Of a stretch of DNA of 64,000 nt, positions 4,632 through 34,242 are shown piece after piece; the stretch's first letter is position 1; every line of letters begins with the position of its first letter. The position numbers and the translations under genes are program-made. The stretch is from an uncultured Armatimonadetes bacterium. GTDB lineage: Bacteria; Armatimonadota; Hebobacteria; Hebobacterales; Hebobacteraceae. The notes under the pieces were generated by a model. It was given only the letters and a program-made list of their open reading frames with translations. It had not been told where the DNA came from and searched no databases. The stretch is taken from positions 2,080,001 to 2,144,000 of the forward strand of contig OY970296.1 in the NCBI GenBank assembly GCA_963716175.1, written 5' to 3'.

Positions 4632-5043
4632 TGGATCGCCGAGCTCGCTCAAGGCGGCGCGGGCGGCTGCGGAGATCGCTCGCAGATTCGACTCACAGGT
4701 GACTCTCGTGCACGTCCAGCATCTGCCAGCCACCGTGGTGGCAGCCTCGGGTGCGGCCGGTATGGCGGGCCTGGACTCGGCCGCCGTCGAGGCCCTGGAG
4801 GAGGCTGGACGCGAGGTGTTGCGTGTTGCTCGCGAGTGCCTCGGGCTGCCTGACGAGCGGGTGAAGCAAGAGCGTCTGTCGGGCCATCCAGCTGAAGTGG
4901 TCTGTCGTCTCGCCGAGAAAGCTGGCTATGACCTGATCGTCATCGGCAGCCGTGGTCTGAGCAAAGTGGGCGCCTTCTTGCTTGGCAGCGTGAGCGACAA
5001 GGTGAGCCACCATGTGCACTGCCCTGTTCTGATAGTCCGGTGA
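4603..5043 (+). CDS. Universal stress protein (UspA family)
   Basis: MFRKVLVPVDGS...DLIVIGSRG...LLGSVSDKVSHHVHCPVLIVR. Confidence 0.93.
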   Translation: MFRKVLVPVDGSPSSLKAARAAAEIARRFDSQVTLVHVQHLPATVVAASGAAGMAGLDSAAVEALEEAGREVLRVARECLGLPDERVKQERLSGHPAEVVCRLAEKAGYDLIVIGSRGLSKVGAFLLGSVSDKVSHHVHCPVLIVR

Positions 5044-5474
5044 CACGGCCCCGGCCCATAGTGACCGTACGGAGGGATATCCGATCTCGGGGAACCTCTG
5101 CCGGAACGCAACCGCAGGGCAAGCTGTCCGAGCTGGAGACGGTGCTACCGTCAGACTACCTGGAGCTCGTGTCCCAGACCGAAGAGCTTTCGGTCGACGG
5201 CTGCCGCGTGTACAGGCTGTCCGAGGTCCGCGAGGTAGTGACGCGCGACGCGACCTGCCAGGTCCTCGTGGAGAGGGATGGTACCGGAGCACTCGCGGTG
5301 AAGCAAGGTGACGCGCAAGGGGAGATCTACTTCTTCGCCTATGACGAGAACGCCGTGGTTGCCGGGTCGTCGCTGCGCGTGGCGGTCGAGAGGCTGCTAA
5401 GGGAGGAATTCGGCCGAGACGGTGCCTTCGGCGCAGGGATGACGGACGCAAATGGGACACCTATTCTCCGATGA
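5040..5474 (+). CDS. SMI1/KNR4 (SUKH)-like protein, possibly partial
   Basis: LETVLPSDYLELV...DGTG..A......GEIYFF pattern; the N-terminus is uncertain. Confidence 0.5.
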   Translation: MTRPRPIVTVRRDIRSRGTSAGTQPQGKLSELETVLPSDYLELVSQTEELSVDGCRVYRLSEVREVVTRDATCQVLVERDGTGALAVKQGDAQGEIYFFAYDENAVVAGSSLRVAVERLLREEFGRDGAFGAGMTDANGTPILR

Positions 5475-22481: not shown

Positions 22482-23151
22482 CTAGAGCGCGCAGCGATTC
22501 GCCGGCAGATCGGCAACCTGGGCCTGCAGATCCTCGACCTCCAGGTGGGTGTAACGCTGGGTTGTCGTCACCCAGGCGTGGCCCAGCAACTCCTGCACCG
22601 CCCGGAGATTGGGCCGGGCGCGTAGGGCGTGGGTGGCGAATGCGCCAGAGGCGCATGAAGGTGTGGCGCAGCAGGTGGGGGCCGGAGCGATCGGTGATGC
22701 CGGCCGCCCGCAGATCCCGATTCACCAACAGCGCAACGCCGCGTACGCAGAAGCGGTGCCCGCTGCGATTCAGAATGAGTGCGGGCTCAGTACCCTCGCG
22801 GTCTGAGAGATAGGCCAGCAGCGCGTCGGCGGCGGGGCGGTTGATGGGCAGCCGACATAGCCTCCGCCCTTTGCCCACCACCTGCAGGGCGCCCCAACCC
22901 TCGGCGGGCAGGCGCAGGTCCTCCCTGCTCAGGGCGCACAGTTCCCCCACTCGCAGACCGGTGTTGTAGAGCAGCATCAGGATGGCGCGGTCCCGCCGGC
23001 CCGTGGGCGTATCGGGGGAGGGCAGGGAGAGCAGGCGCTGGACCTCCTCGACCGTGAGATGCTTGGGCGCCAGCGATGGACCGAGGCGGATGGAGCGCAG
23101 CGCCTGCGCGGGGTTGGTCTCCAGTCGGCCTTCTTCAAAGAGGAAGCGGCA
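22482..23151 (-). pseudogene. XerC/D-like tyrosine recombinase, N-terminally truncated, interrupted by a 19-nt hairpin insertion (22638-22656)
   Basis: RDRAILMLLYNTGLRVGEL, VVGKG, HLLRHTF then shifted ATHALR...[17 protein letters not shown]; 3' end approximate. Confidence 0.9.
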
Positions 23152-23448
23152 GGCCGAACGATCCGTGGTACTCGGTTTCGCGCAGCATCGCCTCGTGGGT
23201 GGCCCGCACCATCGTCGGGTCGGTTCCGAGCGCCACCGGCGCGAGCTCGCGCTCGACCAGCGCCGCCAACGTCTCCGGCCCGCCCACGATGCGGCCGAAG
23301 TACACATCTCCTCGCCCCGCGATCCCCTCGTCGGTCTCGATGCGCACCTCCACCGTCCCCGCGCCCCCCAGCACCTGCAGTGCATCGCGAAGGGGGTCAG
23401 GGGCGGGGGACGGGGGTGAGGCACGGCGTTGATCTTCGTGACCTTCAT
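23152..23448 (-). pseudogene. N-terminal fragment of a mandelate racemase/muconate lactonizing enzyme family gene
   Basis: MKVTKI...VEVRIETDEGIAGRG...LAPVALGTDP; RBS ggagg; fused to the recombinase fragment. Confidence 0.7.
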
Positions 23449-23752
23449 CTCCCAGTTCCTCCCAACGCAGCCCCCAGCGCTCGACCATCGTGATGTACTG
23501 AAACTGATCTGGGGGTTTCTTCGGCAGGTGCCGAGCGGGACCTGCCCTCTCGCGTGGTTGGTGGGCCAGGTTTCGGATGGCTCCCACGTCGCCATGGTGA
23601 GCCCCGCAACGCCACGCCAGGCGCGCAGCTGCGGCGCCAGATGATGTCGCGGGCTCACAACTCCATCAAGCTGCGAGGCGGCAGAAGTCGTTGATCAGGC
23701 CGTCGAGTGCCGGCCGGGCAACGATCTTGCCCTCGCACGGATACGCGTCCGG

Positions 23753-23933
23753 TGTCCTCTCTAGAAGCTCCATCCTGGCGCCGCGACCGGAGGCGCGGGT
23801 CCATTAGAGCAGGAGATGGGGGTCGAGCAGGGTTGATGCCCATCACGCGGAAGCATCCCAAACGACGGCCCCGGGCACCCCCGGCTCCGGCTACCCCCTC
23901 GGCTGGGAGGCAATGTCCGGCGTCCTGTCACCA
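23753..23933 (+). repeat. Copy of the dispersed element family
   Basis: 23753-23815 matches 673-735; 23864-23933 matches 9501-9570. Confidence 0.7.
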
Positions 23934-24254
23934 ATGATGAACAGCGCCGGCGCTGATACGGGATGCGACCCTCCCTCGGTTAGCCCGCTCGCCGGGTGCT
24001 CGACGGCAGGCCCCTTCCTCGGCACGCAGACCGAAGTTCCAGCCCCTTCCACGTGTAGCTATCGTCCAGGGACGTGGCGGAGTGCCCATCAGACACCGGA
24101 GCATGCCCCCACGCTAACGTTGGGGCGGTTCTGGGGTGCAGTAACCACTTCGCACGCGCCCTTGTTCGGCAGTCCTGAACTCCTACAGCGGGATGCGCCT
24201 GGAGGGAGCCACCTGCCCTCAGCGAAGTGGGCAGGTGGGGCGGAGGGAGGTCCC

Positions 24255-25430
24255 ATGGCAGCACGCGATGATAGCTATGATGTCCTGGTCTGCGGGGGCG
24301 GCATCGCAGGCGTGGCCGCCGCGCTGGAGGCGGCGAGGTCGGGTCAGCGCACCGCGCTGCTGGAGAAGACGATCCTCCTCGGCGGCCTCGCCACTGCGGG
24401 CCTGATCTGGGGTTATCCTCCCCTCTACGACGCCAATGGCACCAAGGTCACCGCCGGTCTGGCGGAGGAACTGCTGCAACTGGCGTGCCGTTACGGGCCA
24501 GGCGGCACCGATCCCTCTCGCCTGGGCGTGGACTGGACTATCTTCTCGCCGGCGGCCTTCGTCCTCGCCCTGGACGAAGCGCTGCTGGGGGCGGGGGTGG
24601 AGATCTGGTTGGACACCCTCGTCTGCCAGCCGGTGATGGAGGGGAACTGTGTCAGGGGCGTGGAGGCAGAGACAAAGGCCGGCCGGGTTACGCTCACGGC
24701 GCGCGTCATCATCGATGCCACTGGCGACGCTGACATCGCCCACCGGTCCGGGGCAGCGTGCGTGACGGCTGGCAATCTCATGGCGATGTGGGCACTCCAG
24801 GCATCCCTGGCGCGCGCTCGTCAGGCGGTTGAGAAGCAGGATGGCGCTCAGGTGATGGAGATGCTCATCCTCGGAGACAGCCTCCTCGACCGAGAAGCCT
24901 GGAAGAGGGCCAAAACGTGGACCGGCCTAGACGCGCGGGGTGTGACCGCCTTCGTGCTGGCCGGTCGCCGCCTGCTGCGCGAGCGGATCGCCGAGGCGCA
25001 GTCCTCGGGCGCCCGAAGCGACCAGTACCCGCTCATGCTGCCCGCACTGGCTCAGTTCCGGACCACGCGGCGGATCGTGGGCCGCGCCACCATAGCGCCA
25101 GGAGAGCACGACCGGCCGCGGCCGGACTCCATCGGAATGGTGGCGGACTGGCGGGCGCCAGAGCATGTGTGGGAGATCCCCTACGGCGCGCTGGTTCCTG
25201 ATGGGGTCCGCGGCCTGCTCGTCGCCGGACGCTGTATCGCCACTGAAGAGGACCCGTGGGAAGCCACCCGGGTAATCACTCCGGTGGCGGTGACCGGACA
25301 GGCGGCCGGCCTAGCGGCAGCACTGGCGGTGGCGCAAGGCGTGAGCCCCAGCGATGTGCCCGCCGACGCTATCCAGGCACAACTCGAGGCGCGGGGTATT
25401 CCCTACCACCGAAGTGGACCTGGCCGTTAA
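24255..25430 (+). CDS. FAD-dependent oxidoreductase
   Basis: YDVLVCGGGIAGVAAA, LGGLATAG, IDATGDADIA, IPYGALVP, LLVAGRCI, TGQAAG. Confidence 0.9.
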   Translation: MAARDDSYDVLVCGGGIAGVAAALEAARSGQRTALLEKTILLGGLATAGLIWGYPPLYDANGTKVTAGLAEELLQLACRYGPGGTDPSRLGVDWTIFSPAAFVLALDEALLGAGVEIWLDTLVCQPVMEGNCVRGVEAETKAGRVTLTARVIIDATGDADIAHRSGAACVTAGNLMAMWALQASLARARQAVEKQDGAQVMEMLILGDSLLDREAWKRAKTWTGLDARGVTAFVLAGRRLLRERIAEAQSSGARSDQYPLMLPALAQFRTTRRIVGRATIAPGEHDRPRPDSIGMVADWRAPEHVWEIPYGALVPDGVRGLLVAGRCIATEEDPWEATRVITPVAVTGQAAGLAAALAVAQGVSPSDVPADAIQAQLEARGIPYHRSGPGR

Positions 25431-25569
25431 GGGCGGCGGCGTGCGGCTCAAGCTCGTGTGCATCATCCATGCCCCGTCCGCGCGTCCCGGGCTTCGGCCT
25501 CTGGCCGCCCGGTGGGGCAGGCACACACGATGGCACGGTGAGTTCAGTAGATGGTGAGGCCCGCCCGGT

Positions 25570-25863
25570 CGCATCCTCTGCCGCCGCCATTCTGAATCCT
25601 CTATGCCTCCCAGCACAGGTGTATCGACGAGGGGAGAGAATGCCACGAGAGAGGCTGCACGAGCACCCTGGGAGCTGGATGAGTTTCTGGACATGACGCG
25701 AGGCATGGCAGGGGACGAGTGCCGGAGGCCCTGCCCAGTCCGATCCCCGATCGCATCTCCGCCCATCCTCGGCGTCTCCCAGCACAGGGGTGTCAGCGAG
25801 TGCAGAGAAGAGCACGACTGAGGCTAGGCTAGCGCCTTGGGGGACAGATAGGGTTCTGGACAG
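25570..25863 (+). repeat. Two tandem right-half copies of the dispersed element (about 25570-25693 and 25745-25862)
   Basis: ctcccagcacagg...gagaa...gaggct...gat(g/a)(a/g)g(t/g)ttctggaca twice. Confidence 0.7.
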
Positions 25864-25941
25864 AATGCGGTCCAGATCCCGCCCCCGGTGCGCTCGGACC
25901 AGAGCCTGCTCATTCTCGGAGTCTGGCGTGCCCGAGCTCAC

Positions 25942-26712
25942 ATGATCGACGCGGTGGTGTTGGCCGGCGGAGTAGACAAGGGCGACATCGCGGCCGGATT
26001 GGGCGTTGTCCACCGTCCTCTACTCGAGGTTGGCGGGCAGCCGATCGTTGAGCGCGTCCTCGGCGCCCTGCGGGGCGCCGCAGAAGTTGGCAAGGTTGCC
26101 CTGGTGGCGCCGCTCCCGGTGCAGGCTGCCGCCTCCGAGGAGGCGGTTGATGCCCGCGTTGTAGCCGGCGATAGCTATGTCGATAACATGGCTCGGGGAG
26201 TAGAGGCGACCAGCCCGGGCAGCGACCACCTGCTGATCATCACCGGCGATCTGCCTCTGATCACCCCGGCTGCTATAGACGACTTTGTGCGCCAATCGCT
26301 GGCTTCGCGCGCCGTGCTCTGTTACGCGATCATCCCGAAGGAGTCATCGGAGCGGCAGTTCCCGGGAGGCCAGCGGACCTACGTTCGCTTGCGCGAGGGT
26401 ACCTTTACAGGCGGCAACGCCATCGTAGTCACGCGCGACTTCGTCGAGCTGCACCGTCATCTCCTCGACCACCTCTTCGCGGTGCGCAAGAACCCGCTCA
26501 AGATGGCCTCGCTGCTCGGGGTTGGGTTCATCGTTGGGCTCCTCACTCACCGGCTCACATTGCCTCACATCGAAGCTCGCGTCGGCGCCATACTCGGCGC
26601 CCGGGCCGCCGCCGTCATCAGCACCTACCCGGAGCTGGGCTTCGATGTGGACAAGCTCGACGACCTCTACCTCTCCCGCCGCGTCGCCGACTCGTTCGAC
26701 TCGCGCCTCTGA
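25942..26712 (+). CDS. MobA-like nucleotidyltransferase family protein
   Basis: DAVVLAGG, LLIITGDLPLIT, RTYVRLREGTFTGGN, FDVDK. Confidence 0.85.
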   Translation: MIDAVVLAGGVDKGDIAAGLGVVHRPLLEVGGQPIVERVLGALRGAAEVGKVALVAPLPVQAAASEEAVDARVVAGDSYVDNMARGVEATSPGSDHLLIITGDLPLITPAAIDDFVRQSLASRAVLCYAIIPKESSERQFPGGQRTYVRLREGTFTGGNAIVVTRDFVELHRHLLDHLFAVRKNPLKMASLLGVGFIVGLLTHRLTLPHIEARVGAILGARAAAVISTYPELGFDVDKLDDLYLSRRVADSFDSRL

Positions 26713-26771
26713 GCCATCCCTAGTATTCCTGAGTATCTCGCAGCGCGCCTCGCGGTGAGGTGCCGTGCGCT

Positions 26772-27650
26772 CTACTGAATCCCGACGAAGAGGCGGAGGT
26801 AGTAATATGCGAACGGGCCGTTGGCCAGCAGACTGTCGAAGTGGTCCAGCACGCCGCCGTGTCCAGGCAGGATCGATCCCGAGTCCTTAACACCCGCCCA
26901 GCGCTTCAGCTTCGACTCCGCCAGATCGCCAAGCTGCCCAACCACACCCAGCGCGCATCCCAATGTCAATGCATGCCCGGTGGACAGACCGAGCCAGCGG
27001 CCGAGCCAGAGCGTAACCAGGGCCGAGGCGAACAGGCCCCCGAGGCTCCCCTCTATGGTCTTGCCCGGGCTCACGCTCGGCCAGAGCTTGTGCCTGCCCA
27101 CCATCTTGCCAACACCTAAGGCGGCACTATCGGTCGTCCAGCAGACGGCTACCACTAGGGCGAGCCAGCCCACACCCTGCGGAACCGAGATGCCTGCCAG
27201 CGCGAAGAAGCCGTGGGGCTCAAGGTACCGCAGGTAGATCAGGTGGCTGAACAGACCTGGAAGCAGCAGGGAGCCGACGAGGCCGACCGAGATGGTTGGC
27301 CACACTGCGTTGCGCGGGGCCGGTGCAGAACCGCGGCTGCGGGGCGCAAGCAACGCTATTAGCAGCGCAGAGGCGACCAGAAACCCGGTAAGGGGCGTCT
27401 CCGCGCGGGCAAGCGCAATCGCCGGGGCAAGCGCGGCGACGATATACCCGGGCCAGCGGATCCAGCCGGGCACATGGAAGGGAGCCGAAGGGCCCTCTGG
27501 CTGAGGGCCTACAGCTAGCTGATAGAACTCCCGCAGCCCAGGCACCACAAGGAGGACTACGAATGCGGTCAGCGGCCAGCTACCCAGATAGATCACCGCA
27601 AGTTCGATCGGTATGGCAACTGCAGCTGTCAGAAGTCTGTACCGGAGCAT
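26772..27650 (-). CDS. cdsA: Phosphatidate cytidylyltransferase
   Basis: SPGKTIEG, GDLAESKLKRWAGVKDSGSILPGHGGVLDHFDS. Confidence 0.93.
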   Translation of the reverse strand: MLRYRLLTAAVAIPIELAVIYLGSWPLTAFVVLLVVPGLREFYQLAVGPQPEGPSAPFHVPGWIRWPGYIVAALAPAIALARAETPLTGFLVASALLIALLAPRSRGSAPAPRNAVWPTISVGLVGSLLLPGLFSHLIYLRYLEPHGFFALAGISVPQGVGWLALVVAVCWTTDSAALGVGKMVGRHKLWPSVSPGKTIEGSLGGLFASALVTLWLGRWLGLSTGHALTLGCALGVVGQLGDLAESKLKRWAGVKDSGSILPGHGGVLDHFDSLLANGPFAYYYLRLFVGIQ

Positions 27651-27720
27651 CTGCTCGGCCCTCCCCCTAGCAGTCGCTTCACTCACTACCATCCAGGGTT
27701 TGGGTGGTAGCGGCCCGTAG

Positions 27721-27987
27721 TGTACCAGAACCAATCTGAGGTATCCACGAAGCCAGGCCCTCTGCTCCTGGGCGCCCCCGGGGTCGAATTCTCGCCACTA
27801 CTGCGACATCATCCAGCCCATGTTCCGGCGTGTGATGATAGGCTGTTCCTTCCCTCTGCCTGAGGTCTGGGCTCGTGTTCCGTGGCGAGCGGCTCCGCGC
27901 ATCCTTGAACAGGAGCACCAATGATCGTCCAGGATCCCATGACCTGCGCTCCTGTGGCGCTCCGGGAGGCGGGTGAGTCCCTGGACA
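27721..27987 (-). repeat. Inverted, degenerate copy of the dispersed element
   Basis: Begins tgtaccagaaccaatctg (reverse complement of the family right end) and ends gagtccctggaca. Confidence 0.45.
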
Positions 27988-28217
27988 CTGCGCGCGGATC
28001 AAGAGGGCGGTGGATCGAGTTCTGCCGGCGCCCATGGGCACTCCTCCATGCAGATCCTCCGGTTTCGCCTGCCAGGCCCGTTTGCCCCTCGCCGACAAGG
28101 ACAGGTCCCGGGAAAACAGGTCCGGTGCCTGGGACTTCTGGCCTTGCAAGGCAAGCCTCGCCTGAGGCACAATTGGCCGTGAGAACAGATGGTGAGTCGG
28201 AAGGGAGGTGACATCCG

Positions 28218-29189
28218 ATGACAGACGCTAGGCAGGGACCGCAGGACCGGTTGCGCATCGTGAGCGTCAGCCTGGGCTCATCGAAGCGCAATCACTCGGT
28301 CGACGTGGAGATGCTGGGCCGGCGGCTGAAGATCGAACGCATTGGAGTTGACGGCGACTACGAGAAGGGGTGTGCGACGATCGCCGAACTCGACGGCAAG
28401 GTGGCGGCCATAGGTCTGGGTGGGACGGACCTCTACCTGGTGGCGGGGGGAAAGCGATATGTGATCGAGCAGTCGCGGCGGCTGGCCGAGTCGGCCACGA
28501 CGACGCCCGTGGTGGACGGCAGCGGCCTGAAAAACACTCTGGAGCGGGAGACGATCCGCTGGCTCGCAGAGACCGGGGCGCTGGAGTTGGCGGGAAGAAA
28601 GGTGCTGCTGGTCAGCGCGGTCGATCGGTTCGGCATGGCGGAGGCATTCGTGGAAGCCAGGTGCGATGTGATCTTCGGCGACCTGATCTTCGCCCTCGGG
28701 TTGCCGGCGCCGGTCCGTTCACTGCGCAGCATCAGCGTCCTCGCCGCCCTCTTCCTGCCCATCGTAAGGCGGCTGCCGATCAGCATGATCTATCCGACCG
28801 GAGAGAAGCAGGAAAGCGGGAAGCCGAAGCACACGAGGTTCTTCCATTGGGCGGAGATCGTGGCCGGGGATTTCCACTATATCCGCAGATGCATGCCGCC
28901 GCGGATGGATGGCAAGACGATCATCACGAACACGACGACCGCGGATGACATAGCGATGCTGCGCGATCGCGGCGTGAGCATGTTGATCACGACGACCCCG
29001 GAGTTCGCCGGCCGCTCGTTCGGGACGAATGTGATGGAGGCGGCGCTGATCGCTCTCTCCGGCAAGCGCCCGGAGGATATGCAGCCCGGTGATTACCTCA
29101 GCCTCCTGCACCAGCTCGGCTGGCAGCCGCGGGTAGTCTCTCTGGCGGAAGCGGCGCCTGTGGTCGAGCCAAGGGAGAGCCGGAGATGA
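28218..29189 (+). CDS. Conserved protein (family often annotated quinate 5-dehydrogenase)
   Basis: VSVSLGSSKRNH, VVDGSGLKNTLER, GRSFGTNVMEA; RBS ggaggtg. Confidence 0.65.
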   Translation: MTDARQGPQDRLRIVSVSLGSSKRNHSVDVEMLGRRLKIERIGVDGDYEKGCATIAELDGKVAAIGLGGTDLYLVAGGKRYVIEQSRRLAESATTTPVVDGSGLKNTLERETIRWLAETGALELAGRKVLLVSAVDRFGMAEAFVEARCDVIFGDLIFALGLPAPVRSLRSISVLAALFLPIVRRLPISMIYPTGEKQESGKPKHTRFFHWAEIVAGDFHYIRRCMPPRMDGKTIITNTTTADDIAMLRDRGVSMLITTTPEFAGRSFGTNVMEAALIALSGKRPEDMQPGDYLSLLHQLGWQPRVVSLAEAAPVVEPRESRR

Positions 29190-29695
29190 TGGCCACGCCC
29201 CACATGGTGGTTGGTGCCGCCATTGGGCACGCCCTCGCCCGCCCGTGGCTGGCATATCCGGCGGCGTTCCCCAGTCACTTCCAGCCCGACCTGGTGCCTC
29301 ACCTCGACTCCCACGCCCTGTTCGGAGTCGAGCACGGCGGACCAACACACCTGGAGGCCGCCGCGGGCGGTACTGACTCCCTGATCGGGGCGGTCGCTGT
29401 GGGCCTCGTCGCCGCGAGACAGCCCCCGCGTCGTGTGATGGTGGGCGGCGCGCTCTTCGGCATCCTGATGGACCTCGGGGGATACATCCCGCCGTCTGGC
29501 ACATGGTTTCAGAACTGGGCCGGCACCGCATGGCTCACAGGATTCCATCACCGCATCCAGCATAACCTCACTCCGGCTCACTGGCCGGTGGGGGCCGGAA
29601 CGCAGGCGGCCACAGCGGCAGTGGCGCTCGCGATCTGCCCTCTCCAGAGACCGCGCACAGAGGTAGCTGCCGACAGGTGGACGGTGGCCCTCTGA
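29186..29695 (+). CDS. Hypothetical membrane protein with conserved His residues
   Basis: TPHMVVGAAIG...SHF..D.VPH.D...FHH; overlaps the upstream stop (ATGA). Confidence 0.65.
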   Translation: MMATPHMVVGAAIGHALARPWLAYPAAFPSHFQPDLVPHLDSHALFGVEHGGPTHLEAAAGGTDSLIGAVAVGLVAARQPPRRVMVGGALFGILMDLGGYIPPSGTWFQNWAGTAWLTGFHHRIQHNLTPAHWPVGAGTQAATAAVALAICPLQRPRTEVAADRWTVAL

Positions 29696-29717
29696 ACTGA
29701 TCCGCAGGAGGTCGGTA

Positions 29718-30737
29718 ATGTCCGAGATCAGGCAGGACCAGGCGACGAAGCGATGGGTGATCATGGCGACGGAGAGGGCGAAGCGGCCCCACGAGCTGGT
29801 GGGCCAGCGACCGGCCGTCGAGAAGCAACCCGAGTACTCGCCCATGTGTCCCTTCTGCCCGGGCAATGAGAAAATGACACCTCCGGAGTTGCTCGCCTAC
29901 CGAAAGAGCGGCGCGGCAAACTCACCGGGCTGGGAGGTGCGCGTCGTTCCGAATCGTTTCGCGGCGCTCAGCCCAGAGGGCGAGTTGGCCATTCGGGACC
30001 CGTACTGGTTCACCAACGTCACCGGCGTCGGCGCGCACGAGGTCATCATCGAGAGCCCCATTCACAATGCCAGTCCCGCGACCATGGACCTGGAGCACGT
30101 GACCCGCGCTCTTGTGCTGGCGGGTCAGCGGTTTGAGCAGCTGCAGCAGGATCACCGCCTGAACTACATCGCTTTCTTCCGCAACAACGGATTCGCCGCG
30201 GGGTCGTCGCTGACCCACCCGCATACGCAGATCATCGCCACGCCGATCGCGCCCACCAACATCCGGCTCGAGATCGAGGAGGCGCGTCGGCACTACGACG
30301 ACCGCATGCACTGCGTCTACTGCGAGACTATCGAGAGGGAGCGTGAGGCGGGCGCGCGGGTGGTGCTGGAGACGGAGGCGTTTCTCGTCTTCGAGCCGTT
30401 CGCGTCCCGATGGCCGTTCGAGACGTGGATCATCCCCAAGCAGCATGCGTCAGTGCTGATTCCGGCCGGCCCAGACCAGGTTCGTCCCCTCGCCGACGCG
30501 CTTCAGACGACGCTGCGCGCGCTCTACCGGGCGCTGGGCGACCCTGCCTATAACCTCGTTCTTCACGAGGCGCCGCTGCGGGACAGCTGCGAAGACTACT
30601 GGCACTGGCACATCGAGATACTGCCGCGGCTTTCGACCGCAGCCGGGTTCGAGCTGGGCACAGGCATCTGGATCAACGCCATGTTGCCGGAGGACGCAGC
30701 CGCTCACCTGCGCGCCTTCGCGTCCGGCAGGCCATAG
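29718..30737 (+). CDS. galT: Galactose-1-phosphate uridylyltransferase
   Basis: RAKRP, CPFCPGNE, HEVIIESP, GSSLTHPHTQ (HPH motif), HWHIEILPR, AGFELG. Confidence 0.93.
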   Translation: MSEIRQDQATKRWVIMATERAKRPHELVGQRPAVEKQPEYSPMCPFCPGNEKMTPPELLAYRKSGAANSPGWEVRVVPNRFAALSPEGELAIRDPYWFTNVTGVGAHEVIIESPIHNASPATMDLEHVTRALVLAGQRFEQLQQDHRLNYIAFFRNNGFAAGSSLTHPHTQIIATPIAPTNIRLEIEEARRHYDDRMHCVYCETIEREREAGARVVLETEAFLVFEPFASRWPFETWIIPKQHASVLIPAGPDQVRPLADALQTTLRALYRALGDPAYNLVLHEAPLRDSCEDYWHWHIEILPRLSTAAGFELGTGIWINAMLPEDAAAHLRAFASGRP

Positions 30738-30833
30738 AGCAGCATAGGGACATTGCCGGCGCAGGCGGCCGCCGCGGCCGAGCGGGTGTTGGCGCCTGAG
30801 ATCGAGATCACATTTCTGTAGCAGGCAGTAGCG

Positions 30834-31060
30834 ATGACGGCAACGCTTGAGCAAGCCAAGTGGAAGTGCCGCACCACAGTGCGGAAGTCTGAGGGTGACG
30901 TGGAAGAGTACATCGCCCGGTTCGGCGAGGAGGAGGGCCTGCGGCGCTTCTAGGCCGAGCACGCCCCGACTGAGGAGATCGTGCGCGAGGGCAACGTGCT
31001 GCTCCGCGTAGGGATCCGGGCCATCTGGAAGCTGGTGGCCGGTCTCTCGGCGACCGCCTA
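30834..31060 (+). pseudogene. Short gene remnant with in-frame TAG, possibly phage-derived
   Basis: MTATLEQAKWKCRTTVRK...RF*AEHAP.EEIVREGNVLL..GI.AIWKLVAG. Confidence 0.3.
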
Positions 31061-31156
31061 CAGCAACGCTGCCCCCCAGGTGCTATAATGTGCGGGTCGG
31101 CCAGCCCATTCGGGCCGCAAGCCAGAACGTGAGCTGCGGCGCTGAGGGGGTGTGCG

Positions 31157-33175
31157 ATGACTGCTCGTGGTGTGTGGCGCATCGGTGGGCGAGACGTGCG
31201 CGCGATGCTCGTCGTATGCATCGTGGTTCCCTGCTGCATCTGTGCATCGGTAGCGATGGCCGGCACTCCCCCGGTGCCCATTGAGGGGACGATTCTTGTG
31301 ACGGCCGATGGTGACCCCCTCGGCGTCTACTTCATCGAGGGCTTGTCGGACAACCGCGTCCCGGCCCCGATCCTGTTCGGTCAGGGCGAGATCTCCCCAT
31401 ACACGGATCGGGTGGCCTACAGTCTCACCGATGCCTGGCCGGAGACGCAGTGCGACGTCTCGACCGCGCGGATTGATGGCTCGGACATCGTCAATCTCAC
31501 GGCGCTGGCCGATCTGGGAGGGGTGAACTGCAACCCGGCCTGGTCACCGGACGCGCGGCAGATCGCCTTCCAGCATGCGGATCCGACGCCCTCGCTCACC
31601 CCGTGTAAGGCCGGGTTCCATGTCTGGGTTATCAATGCAGACGGTACCGGCGCGCACCGTGTGACTGCTCCGGGGGCGTCGCCCACGAAGGACCCCTCGT
31701 GGGCACCCGACGGTCATCGTCTGACGTGCTGGTCAGAGGATGGCAACGCGATTGCGCTCAACGTCGATGGAACGGACCTCGTCGTTTTGCCCCATGTCGC
31801 TGACTACCCAGACTGGTCTCCGGATGGCGCCTCCATCATCTCCACCACGTACGACGAAGGGACGAACGGCGGCCAGACCGGCATGTGGCGCCGGATCGTG
31901 CTCACAGACAGAAATGGGGACAACCCCAGCGTGCTCTTTGAGCGGTTCATCAGCGATGCCGACGTCGCGACCCAGGTGGCCCTCTACGGTTCGACCTTCC
32001 CGTCCGGGTCTGATCCGGTCGGGATTGTCCAGGAGGGTGTGGGGCCATCGAACGCAAGGTGGTCGCCTACCGGCACCCGTATCCTCTTCCGAGCGGCGCT
32101 CCCCTTCGACCCGACAGGCCTGGCCTACAGTCGCCAAGTCGAGCTCTGGTTGTGGGACGTGGCGACCGGTGACCTGACGAGGATCACAGAGAACGATGCC
32201 TGCGAGTACGATCACAGTTGGCACGGTGATAACACCTACCCCGATCACCCGAGTGTGACGGTGGACAACACGACCGTGACCTTCTGTCAGGTGCTCGCGC
32301 CTGGTGTGACAACGATCATCCAGGAGGATGCCGGCGTGACGGTACGCGCGGACCAGGTGGCGGTCCCGCCCTTCTTCAACATCCTCACGACCGCGCAGGT
32401 CAGCGGCCCCATCTGCGTCTCGATGACCTATGAAGACGCAGCGGTGCCCGCGGCCGCGGAAGGGCACCTCTCGCTGGTGCGCTTCGACCCGGAGGCGCGC
32501 ATGTGGTTCAGTCAGCCTTCGACGCCTGACCCGGTCCACAGCGTGGTTACTGGACAGCCATCCTCCCTTGGCGACTTGGGCCTGATGTGGCCGCTACCCT
32601 CGAGCCAGTTCTCGGATGTCGCGTCATCGGCCACCGATCCCTACTGGGCCTTGTGGGAGATCGAGGCCGCCTATGGCGCAGGCATCGTTAAGGGCTACTC
32701 CGACGGCACCTACAAGCCCACCGACCCGGTGACCCGCGACCAGATGGCCGTCTACATTTCCCGCGCGGTGGCGGGCGGCGATGGCAGTGTCCCCGACTTC
32801 ACCGGCACCCCGACCTTCACCGATGTGCCGGCGGGCTACTGGGCGCTGAAGTACATCGAGTATGCGGCGAGCCACGACGTGGTCCAAGGCTACGACCCCA
32901 CCCACTATGTCCCCGATGCCGTGGTGGACCGGGGCCAGATGGCGGTCTTCGTCGCTCGCTCCCAGGGGTGGGTAAATCTGGGGGATGACATGACCACCGC
33001 CCCTCAGGTCTTCTCCGATGTCCCCGCGGGCTTCTGGGCCGGCACCGCGATCAAGGCCTGTGTGGACCATGTGGTGGTGCAGGGCTATCTGGATGGCCTT
33101 TACCACCCAGCTGACGCGGTCACCCGCGACCAGATGGCGGTGTATGTGGCGAGGGCCTTCAAGCTGCCGATGTGA
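31157..33175 (+). CDS. Secreted TolB/PD40 beta-propeller protein with three C-terminal SLH domains
   Basis: PAWSPD/PSWAPD/PDWSPD repeats; FSDV...YWA..., GYSDGTYKP..VTRDQMAVY x3. Confidence 0.92.
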   Translation: MTARGVWRIGGRDVRAMLVVCIVVPCCICASVAMAGTPPVPIEGTILVTADGDPLGVYFIEGLSDNRVPAPILFGQGEISPYTDRVAYSLTDAWPETQCDVSTARIDGSDIVNLTALADLGGVNCNPAWSPDARQIAFQHADPTPSLTPCKAGFHVWVINADGTGAHRVTAPGASPTKDPSWAPDGHRLTCWSEDGNAIALNVDGTDLVVLPHVADYPDWSPDGASIISTTYDEGTNGGQTGMWRRIVLTDRNGDNPSVLFERFISDADVATQVALYGSTFPSGSDPVGIVQEGVGPSNARWSPTGTRILFRAALPFDPTGLAYSRQVELWLWDVATGDLTRITENDACEYDHSWHGDNTYPDHPSVTVDNTTVTFCQVLAPGVTTIIQEDAGVTVRADQVAVPPFFNILTTAQVSGPICVSMTYEDAAVPAAAEGHLSLVRFDPEARMWFSQPSTPDPVHSVVTGQPSSLGDLGLMWPLPSSQFSDVASSATDPYWALWEIEAAYGAGIVKGYSDGTYKPTDPVTRDQMAVYISRAVAGGDGSVPDFTGTPTFTDVPAGYWALKYIEYAASHDVVQGYDPTHYVPDAVVDRGQMAVFVARSQGWVNLGDDMTTAPQVFSDVPAGFWAGTAIKACVDHVVVQGYLDGLYHPADAVTRDQMAVYVARAFKLPM

Positions 33176-33458
33176 CGAAGAGCCCTCCGGCTAGCGCGAT
33201 CCCTGCATGGCCACCGCGCCATTGAGCACATAATGCGTCCTATGGGCATAGTCTCCCCCTGACCTGTGCGTCGGACGCGCGACACCGGTCAGCCCTGGGG
33301 CATCGGCGGTAGCTGCCATTGTGCCCGCGACCGATTCAGAGTATACTGCGTGCAGTGCCCGTTCGGGCACACGAGTCTAGAAGGCCGTATCTTCGGGGTG
33401 AGGGACGTTCGTAGGCCGATCTCCGTAGCCGCGATGCTTTCGGAAAGGAGACCGGCAG

Positions 33459-33656
33459 ATGATCAAAGGTACCGTGAAGTGGTTCAAGGACGAGAAGGGC
33501 TTCGGCTTCATCGAGACCGAGACGGGTGATGTCTTCGTGCATCACTCGGCCATCGAGGGAGAGGGATTCCGTTCCCTGCGCGAGGGCCAAGAGGTCGAGC
33601 TCGAAATCGGTCAGAGCGATAAAGGGCCGAGGGCCGTCAAGGTCCGAGCACTCTAG
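33459..33656 (+). CDS. Cold-shock protein
   Basis: [33 protein letters not shown]. Confidence 0.95.
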
Positions 33657-33677
33657 TTCGGTCTAGCGTTGCAGCGA

Positions 33678-33713
33678 AAGCGCTCTGGCGTATGCCGGGG
33701 CGCTTCTCGCTTT
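33678..33713 (+). terminator. Putative terminator after the csp gene
   Basis: aagcgctctggc-gtat-gccggggcgctt then ctcgcttt. Confidence 0.5.
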
Positions 33714-33764
33714 CCGGGTGGAGGCGAGCAGCAGTTCGGCGGGCCGTGCCCGCCTGCGGCGTGC

Positions 33765-34087
33765 CCTAGCCGATGCCCCCGAAGTGGTTCGCCGGCAGTT
33801 CGGCAACCTGAGCCTGCAGATCCTCGTCCTCGAGAATGGGTGTAGCGCTGGGTGGTGGTCACCCAGGCGTGGCCCAGCAGCTCCTGCACCGCCCGCAGGT
33901 TGGGCCGGGCACGCAGGGCGTGCGTGGCGAATGCGCCAGAGGCGCATGAAGGTGTGGCGCACCAGGTGGGGGCCGGAGCGATCAGTGATGCCGGCCGCCT
34001 GCAGGTAGCGGTTCACCAATAGCGCGATGCCGCGCACGGAGAAGCGATCCCCGCTGCGATTCAGGAAGAGCGCCGGCTTCGTCCCTA
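33765..34087 (-). pseudogene. Second XerC/D-like recombinase C-terminal fragment with the same 19-nt hairpin insertion (33929-33947)
   Basis: PALFLNRSG.RFSVRG...GPHLVRHTF / ATHALR...[15 protein letters not shown]; paralogous to 22495-22795. Confidence 0.88.
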
Positions 34088-34242
34088 GTGCTGACGGCCG
34101 GGATGGCGGCCGGCTCTGCCGGCCTTGCCCCCTGGAACGAGTCCAGGTGGATCGCCCAGACAGAGCTTGGGTGGAGGGGAGGCGAGGAGGATACCTTTCG
34201 CCGTTGAATGAACCGGAAGCGCTGGGCGCGGAGGAGACGGGA

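Follow-up and report, generated by a model that had tools for sequence, protein, structure and literature searches.

A 19-nt palindromic insertion shared by broken copies of a mosaic Xer-like tyrosine recombinase gene in an uncultured member of the Armatimonadota

Stretches of DNA that bear inverted arms and a short flanking duplication and that have inserted inside an open reading frame (ORF) are familiar from miniature inverted-repeat transposable elements (MITEs) and from the Rickettsia palindromic elements. The 19-nucleotide (nt) insertion considered here, which twice interrupts a tyrosine recombinase gene in a 64,000-nt stretch of the genome of an uncultured Armatimonadetes bacterium (contig OY970296.1 of assembly GCA_963716175.1), resembles them in all of these features, although they are about five to ten times longer, and we know of no bacterial element as small as this one. 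To our knowledge, natural cases of translational hopping or of targeted mini-inserts, the other phenomena that such an insertion calls to mind, are very few. In a preprint on translational bypassing, the features associated with the process include sites for take-off and for landing that match and a stem-loop at take-off, and also a stop or 'hungry' codon at take-off, a Shine-Dalgarno (SD)-like run and an AU-rich 3' part of the gap (Manning & Atkins, 10.1101/2022.08.31.505936). The stretch, hereafter the window, covers positions 2,080,001–2,144,000 of one 4.56-Mb contig; the insertion is a real and rather odd indel allele within a mosaic recombinase family, and in the window it marks two dead relics of the gene.

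Both sites in the window lie on the minus strand and read CAC ACC TTC ATGCGCCTCTGGCGCAT TC GCC AC(C/G) CAC. The insert, ATGCGCC-TCT-GGCGCAT followed by TC, is a perfect hairpin with a 7-bp stem and a 3-nt loop (7-3-7) plus a duplicated TC or TTC, and it separates the TTC (Phe) codon from the GCC (Ala) codon in the RHTF|ATH motif. In window copy 1 it occupies 22638–22656, with its 17-nt palindrome at 22640–22656; in window copy 2 an insert identical in sequence and position occupies 33929–33947, with the palindrome at 33931–33947. Deleting the 19 nt gives exactly the sequence of insert-free paralogues, and keeping them moves ATH...LLGH...RYTH, and with it the catalytic His and Tyr, into another frame. 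The window holds these two exact matches to the palindrome, a number that was reached in none of 100 dinucleotide shuffles (mean 0.05), and a third identical insert stands elsewhere in the genome (1952898–1952914), where it splits the same pair of codons in a further fragment of this gene. The hairpin has a predicted folding energy of -12.9 kcal/mol vs -0.7 kcal/mol for the insert-free site, with z = -2.3 and -1.2 relative to shuffles of the same 46 nt, and Rfam gave no match at the hairpins.

The interrupted gene encodes a Xer-like tyrosine recombinase. Its intact paralogue, of 302 amino acids (aa), matches Phage_integrase (PF00589; E 9.6e-35, 120.3 bits vs a cut-off of 27.1) and an N-terminal SAM-like domain (PF02899; E 3e-14), and scores below the NCBIfam equivalog cut-offs for both XerC (TIGR02224; 232.1 vs 335.15) and XerD (TIGR02225; 220.3 vs 329.6). 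It contains the motifs ...NTGLRVGEL..., ...GKGRR..., HLLRHTFATH, LLGH and RYTH, which we take to supply the catalytic residues R, K, HxxR, H and Y; neither window copy has the full set in one reading frame. Eight copies or fragments were recovered from this genome by blastn and alignment. Two are intact, namely c809 and c2243 (2242368–2243312), the latter with an in-frame insertion of 45 nt, and six are truncated at the 5' end, namely c2102 (window copy 1), c2114 (window copy 2), c1952 (the third carrier of the insert), c2027, c2241 and c92, and each of these six preserves the gene's 3' end. The insert site is covered by six of the eight, with the insert present in c2102, c2114 and c1952 and absent from c809, c2243 and c2027; the resulting difference between truncated copies (three carriers of four that cover the site) and intact copies (none of two) is not significant (one-sided p=0.2, calculated by hand).

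Both window copies are damaged well beyond the insert. Copy 1 (22482–23152, minus strand) begins at about codon 84, lacking about the first 83 codons, its catalytic domain is split into two frames, and its upstream part matches PF00589 with 70 bits (2.7e-19) over profile positions 2–135 of 172 only; it also bears changes of its own at otherwise conserved residues. Its 5' break is adjoined by the N-terminal part of a gene for a mandelate racemase/muconate lactonizing enzyme (23135–23587, minus strand; PF02746, 5.9e-07) in a different frame, and an in-frame fusion of the two is excluded. Copy 2 (33780–34081, minus strand) retains about the last 95 codons, and an extra T (33835–33836, minus strand), placed directly after the TAC ACC CAT codons of YTH, introduces a second frameshift. 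At the 5' edge of copy 2, 34083–34127 (minus strand) corresponds by homology to the in-frame 45-nt insertion of c2243, which is intact and lacks the 19-nt insert; the copy 2 version of the 45-nt insertion holds a perfect GGCCGGC-AGA-GCCGGCC hairpin. Neither window copy can encode a recombinase, whatever becomes of the insert. A first-pass annotation, made from the letters of the window and its ORFs, had described an identical hairpin with a duplicated TTC at both sites, had seen that its removal restores the frame and had recognised that both copies are truncated at the N-terminus, all of which is upheld here, coordinates included. The two carriers that it counted are likewise confirmed; the third in the genome escaped it, as did, in an otherwise accurate anatomy, the extra 1-nt frameshift after the YTH codons of copy 2.

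That annotation went on to propose that the frame distal to the insert had been under selection whilst the insert-bearing copies diverged, citing about 13 synonymous and 2 non-synonymous differences downstream of the insert. The hand count comes close to the computed one, which is 12 synonymous and 2 non-synonymous differences over 46 codons (Nei-Gojobori method; proportions of synonymous and non-synonymous differences, pS and pN, of 0.32 and 0.02), and among carriers in general downstream pS is about 0.32–0.39 and pN 0.01–0.035, with about 30 of the 33 variable sites at third codon positions. The interpretation does not follow, as the family proves to be a recombining mosaic, with a patch shared by c2102 and c2027 and with carriers that are not monophyletic. 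Differences biased towards synonymous change separate any two copies, carrier or not, and the pattern needs no selection on carriers because the family recombines and the donors are functional paralogues. The differences are patches rather than clonal divergence, and they are synonymous because they were donated by working genes. The evidence offered for a programmed switch, therefore, does not hold.

Mosaicism is apparent from several sides. Carriers differ from one another at 16–17 of 162 positions and from insert-free copies at 12–22 of 162, and their mutual distance is as large as their distance to a copy from another genus. When presence and absence of the insert are scored on a tree, as the first-pass annotation had suggested, the carriers do not form a clade: the maximum-likelihood (ML) tree is star-like, three changes of insert state are required, and the carriers make up one group in 0 of 200 bootstrap trees. 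Other characters fall on conflicting backgrounds, the 45-nt insertion being common to the carrier c2114 and the non-carrier c2243, and the type of 3' tail grouping c2102 with c809, and c2114 with c1952 and c2241. A test of the pairwise homoplasy index (PHI) type detected recombination both in a set of 13 full-length copies (p=0.007) and in the 8 copies from a related genome, G011 (p=0.0005), and over half of the informative site pairs fail the four-gamete test. Across the insert site the closest relative of window copy 1 is the insert-free fragment c2027, from which it differs at 5 of 141 positions between -98 and +46, all five private to c2102, and at 13 of 98 between +47 and +145 (Fisher p=0.011). 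Window copy 1 is itself decaying, with 16 private changes in 650 nt distributed 8:3:5 over codon positions 1:2:3, and with alterations at 4 of 168 otherwise invariant residues.

Relatives, too, hold the family in several copies. G011 returned nine matches to the query, eight of them covering nearly all of it, with copies 81–83% identical to window copy 1; the repeat unit consists of the gene together with the 70–340 nt upstream of it, with no homology past the stop codon. Two of the eight near-full-length G011 copies (L041 and L047) contain 1-nt frameshifts, three 1-nt insertions in one and a 1-nt deletion in the other, and since such copies exist decay is common in this recombinase family; the same two rows, misaligned by their frameshifts, were left out of the comparison of conserved residues. 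The insert was absent from all related copies examined. Its 25-mer, allowing up to three mismatches, was found in 0 of 14 other genomes of the family, and its 17-mer in 0 of 30 other genomes of the class and in 1 of 400 other genomes of the phylum, the last at an unrelated intergenic spot and not as the insert itself. Both an exact 27-mer and a degenerate back-translation of FMRLWRIRH gave no match in one genome for each of 185,579 species. Metagenome contigs yielded a single match, again intergenic and unrelated, to the 22-mer that includes TTC..TTC, and viral contigs a single unrelated match to the 17-mer. The unrelated records that hold the 17-nt palindrome thus number three, all with intergenic sites (L050:1323–1344, metagenomic; L051:1501–1517, from the genome of another family; L052:2280–2296, viral), which could be chance occurrences or a small operator-like motif. 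A copy of the palindrome with one mismatch also lies at 92017–92033 of this genome, about 300 nt upstream of relic c92.

Proteins offered a further view of the distribution. The out-of-frame peptide expected from reading through the insert matched three clusters among 5.8 billion protein clusters, and none among proteins of 30–128 aa. Because metagenomic clusters read through it in this way, the insert exists outside this genome too, and in full-length genes, the N-terminus being complete in four carrier ORFs (P0003, P0005, P0006 and P0007). The tails of the metagenomic carriers were decoded from out-of-frame peptides only; read thus, the tail of P0002 and P0006, including about 50 nt of 3' flank, is the same as that of window copy 1. 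Upstream, P0006 and c2102 share only 143 of 168 protein residues (85%), and between their tails six changes are inferred, all synonymous in the true frame and five of them within 12 codons. A more distant lineage, that of P0005 and P0007, is 64–68% identical in protein to the window type and 86–91% to copies of genome G018, and it too contains the six residues MRLWRI. P0008, which is intact and insert-free, shares a 90% cluster with P0005, of which it is a sibling at 92% identity. The tail of P0005 and P0007 changes frame again across LSGKS, just after the YTH codons, which implies that about 13 nt have been inserted there as well; a palindrome of 12 nt would fit the peptide, and the two insertions together (19+13 = 32 nt) do not restore the frame.

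The insert is unchanged across three lineages, over which about 3–9 neutral changes would be expected by our own estimate, and its state differs between nearest relatives (c2102 vs c2027; P0005 vs P0008). For these two reasons the insert is younger than the copies that hold it, and has moved between copies, been re-created or been precisely lost. The account that we favour, and to which we would give roughly an even chance, is that of a null allele spread among the copies by short-tract recombination. The palindrome would be an inactivating insertion allele of a multi-copy Xer-like gene whose copies recombine with one another; it would have originated once, shifting the catalytic His and Tyr out of frame, and would then have been copied into already diverged copies via short-tract gene conversion or crossing-over. 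In this genome the allele is confined to three relics that have lost their 5' parts, two in the window and none able to make a recombinase, and the synonymous differences downstream would have arisen in working paralogues, either earlier than the insert or independently of it, and have reached the relics by descent and in conversion patches. Transfer between diverged copies is possible because no DNA of the gene is better conserved than that around the insert, where about 20 bases to either side are identical even when the two lineages are compared. Gene conversion was among the options raised by the first-pass annotation, and it is retained here as the best of them, given that the family recombines, the single origin and the transfer itself being what we infer.

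It is worth noting, however, that a number of observations count against this account. An approximately unbiased (AU) test stops short of rejecting a single carrier clade (p=0.075), and the PHI test gave p=0.97 on the short 3' region of this genome's copies, where with 13 informative sites it is powerless. The identical stretch of the two window copies measures 38 nt including the insert, so that tracts must be short, a limit that falls away if copy 2 acquired the two flanking differences later, as private mutations; nor was a co-transferred flanking marker seen with the insert. For the insert to reach the second lineage, one cell must have held both types, and recombination would depend on local identity of about 20 nt. 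Upstream of the insert, P0003, P0005 and P0006 have changes at 1–2 of 251 conserved residues vs 0–3 in insert-free copies, and without an excess of damage there they are either young or constrained. Finally, spread by recombination leaves unexplained why three of the four relics bear the insert.

The other accounts of the insert make different use of the same evidence. An enzyme acting in trans, or templated repair, may repeatedly have written a palindromic mini-insert of 16–17 nt, with a target duplication of 2–3 nt (TC or TTC), into the CACACCTTC|GCCAC site, so that every carrier is an independent event. We regard this as unlikely, though several observations speak for it: the insert is identical on diverged backgrounds and in two lineages 64–68% identical in protein, and the nearest relatives are unlike in insert state (c2102/c2027 and P0005/P0008). 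The terminal inverted repeats (ATGCGCC and GGCGCAT) and TC or TTC duplication have the form expected of an insertion, a likeness that is weak at this size; the second insertion of about 13 nt in P0005 and P0007 again adjoins a conserved codon junction, after YTH; the 19-sequence family alignment shows no insertions of more than one base other than those of 19 nt and 45 nt and one of 3 nt; and the exact 22-mer, TTC..TTC included, recurs at the unrelated intergenic site in the metagenome. Set against these are the three exact copies in this genome, all at the same gene-family site rather than at several unrelated ones, with no further exact 17-mer, no donor for any 13-mer spanning the insert junctions, and no 11–13-mer of those junctions found in the genome beyond chance. 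Relaxing the palindrome to 1–2 mismatches brought 5 further matches in the genome vs 3 for a reversed control pattern, and the unrelated matches L050, L051 and L052 are at about chance level by our own estimate. Hairpins of the 7-3-7 form are frequent (934, or 205 per Mb vs 136 per Mb simulated), the stem of the insert belongs to no repeat family, and we know of no agent for recurrent insertion. Two narrower suggestions were set aside: templating of the arms from an upstream TGCGCC, with which only a 6-mer matches, judged near chance, and a dif-like Xer site, the arm order of the palindrome being the reverse of that of dif. A history of plain vertical descent, in which duplication within the genome of one copy, already dead and bearing the insert, was followed by drift of the duplicates, would account for an insert that is identical in three copies, all of them pseudogene fragments. 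It is very improbable, since pS of about 0.32–0.39 vs pN of 0.01–0.035 with a third-position bias is not the mark of neutral drift, a neutral insert of 19 nt should by now have changed (by the same estimate of about 3–9 changes), the carriers are not a clade, and both 3' tail types and the 45-nt indel differ among them. Least credible of all is an artefact of sequencing or assembly, or a chimeric contig: P0005 and P0007 could in principle reflect a metagenome mis-join through the conserved motif, but P0005 belongs to the other lineage on both sides of the insert, the three loci have different flanks within a single-contig genome, and independent carriers occur in JGI and ENA data.

There remains the proposal that the insert is tolerated, either because ribosomes hop from UUC to UUC across the hairpin or because DNA slippage between the TTC repeats excises it precisely, so that full-length carriers would still give active recombinase, possibly as a regulated or one-way switch. 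The first-pass annotation had listed a removable or bypassed switch among its options; within this genome the idea finds no support, all three carriers being truncated and copy 2 having another frameshift, and what speaks for it comes from metagenomes, where full-length carriers do exist (P0003, P0005, P0006 and P0007). Take-off and landing codons match, TTC and TTC standing 19 nt apart in all three copies, and the hairpin, with its 7-bp stem and 3-nt loop, starts from the base after the take-off codon. No further indel appears in the 69-codon tail of P0006 or the 35-codon tail of P0003, where the inferred changes fall almost only at true-frame third positions; as far as out-of-frame peptides allow, these two are compatible with a gene otherwise intact on both sides of the insert, which is not so of the copies in this genome. 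The coexistence of insert-free and insert-bearing near relatives is the expected residue of precise excision, and slippage at the TTC repeat is a mechanistically plausible way of achieving it that would explain the insert-free siblings. The remaining particulars are unfavourable. Take-off is followed by AUG, which is not a stop and not a rare 'hungry' codon; the gap ATGCGCCTCTGGCGCA has 11 of 16 bases G+C and is not AU-rich in its 3' part, and it contains no Shine-Dalgarno or GGAGG-like run; the insert supplies no in-frame start for the distal part; the second frameshifting insertion of P0005 and P0007 leaves the frame unrestored; the insert is very rare; and excision, being one-way, makes no switch. 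Tolerance by hopping or excision is on balance improbable. A bolder version, in our view just as doubtful, would have the hairpin be a mini-insert akin to the mitochondrial 'byps' that homes into the RHTF|ATH junction in several lineages and is tolerated through hopping or excision, the second insertion in P0005 and P0007 being perhaps of the same kind.

Around the relics and their paralogues a number of further features were seen. The 10.6 kb between the two window relics was considered as a possible mobile island and rejected as such: 7 of 10 predicted proteins in and around it match Pfam, all in ordinary metabolic or envelope families, and no mobile-element family is among those matches. 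The stretch encodes an FAD oxidoreductase, an NTP transferase, a member of the CDP-diglyceride synthase family, a galactose-1-phosphate uridylyltransferase-like protein, an SLH protein and a cold-shock protein. At two loci of this genome (L027:2224–3624, with c809; genome 1953138–1956422, with c1952) and one of G011 (L046 at about 4691–5221) the recombinase gene or relic is convergent with an SLH-domain surface-protein gene, their 3' ends being no more than about 100 nt apart, and window copy 2 is about 600 nt from another SLH gene (window 31157–33175); SLH genes are very numerous in this genome (127 tblastn segments), which bears on any such adjacency. Directly downstream of window copy 2, a cold-shock ORF (33429–33656) is overlapped by a match to the cspA thermoregulator RNA (33376–33708, plus strand) that is below threshold, at 42.7 bits vs a gathering cut-off of 78 (E 2.7e-08).

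The fragments of the recombinase gene are each cut at a different 5' point, and 3'-end relics of the same kind occur in genomes G005, G003 and G011 (L030, L014 and L049 included). Homology between copies stops sharply at about the stop codon, the last few codons varying by copy. In c809 a 2.4-kb block (L027 about 1–1160; genome 806447–808844), which encodes a 301-aa ORF with an HNH-like motif recognised by eye, parts the gene from a segment of roughly 300 nt that directly precedes the gene in c2243, and comparable interruptions of 1.2–1.6 kb are found in some G011 copies. Near relic c92 there is a tandem array of about 9 copies of a 45-nt unit (L004:549–1110; genome about 91065–91626).

What these relics convey depends on which account is correct. 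If the insert is a null allele spread by recombination, then in a recombining, multi-copy family a synonymous-only pattern past a frameshift is no proof that a broken gene is being read, and a lesion can pass from one diverged copy to another when it lies where the gene is most conserved. Should one of the less probable accounts prove true, the locus would offer a bacterial candidate, short and readily tested, for translational hopping or a targeted mini-insert, and if the insert were akin to the byps it would be the first cellular bacterial analogue of the mitochondrial byps and of T4 gene 60.

Compared with MITEs and Rickettsia palindromic elements, the insert differs in occupying a single type of site in the genome and in shifting the frame instead of preserving it. 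With T4 gene 60 and the Magnusiomyces capitatus mitochondrial byp, as described in the preprint cited above, it shares a short insert in a run of conserved codons, identical flanking codons and a take-off stem-loop; unlike them it is only 19 nt long, has no stop or hungry codon, SD-like run or AU-rich 3' part, and is carried in this genome by copies that are broken elsewhere. Relative to other Xer-like recombinases, the gene is here multi-copy and mosaic, and its window copies are truncated and frame-split. Plain, unbiased gene conversion does not predict a frameshifting palindrome in three of four relics and in a second, distant lineage; in its star-like tree, its PHI signal, the change of nearest relative from segment to segment and the indels on conflicting backgrounds, the family is nonetheless like mobile-element paralogues made mosaic by gene conversion.

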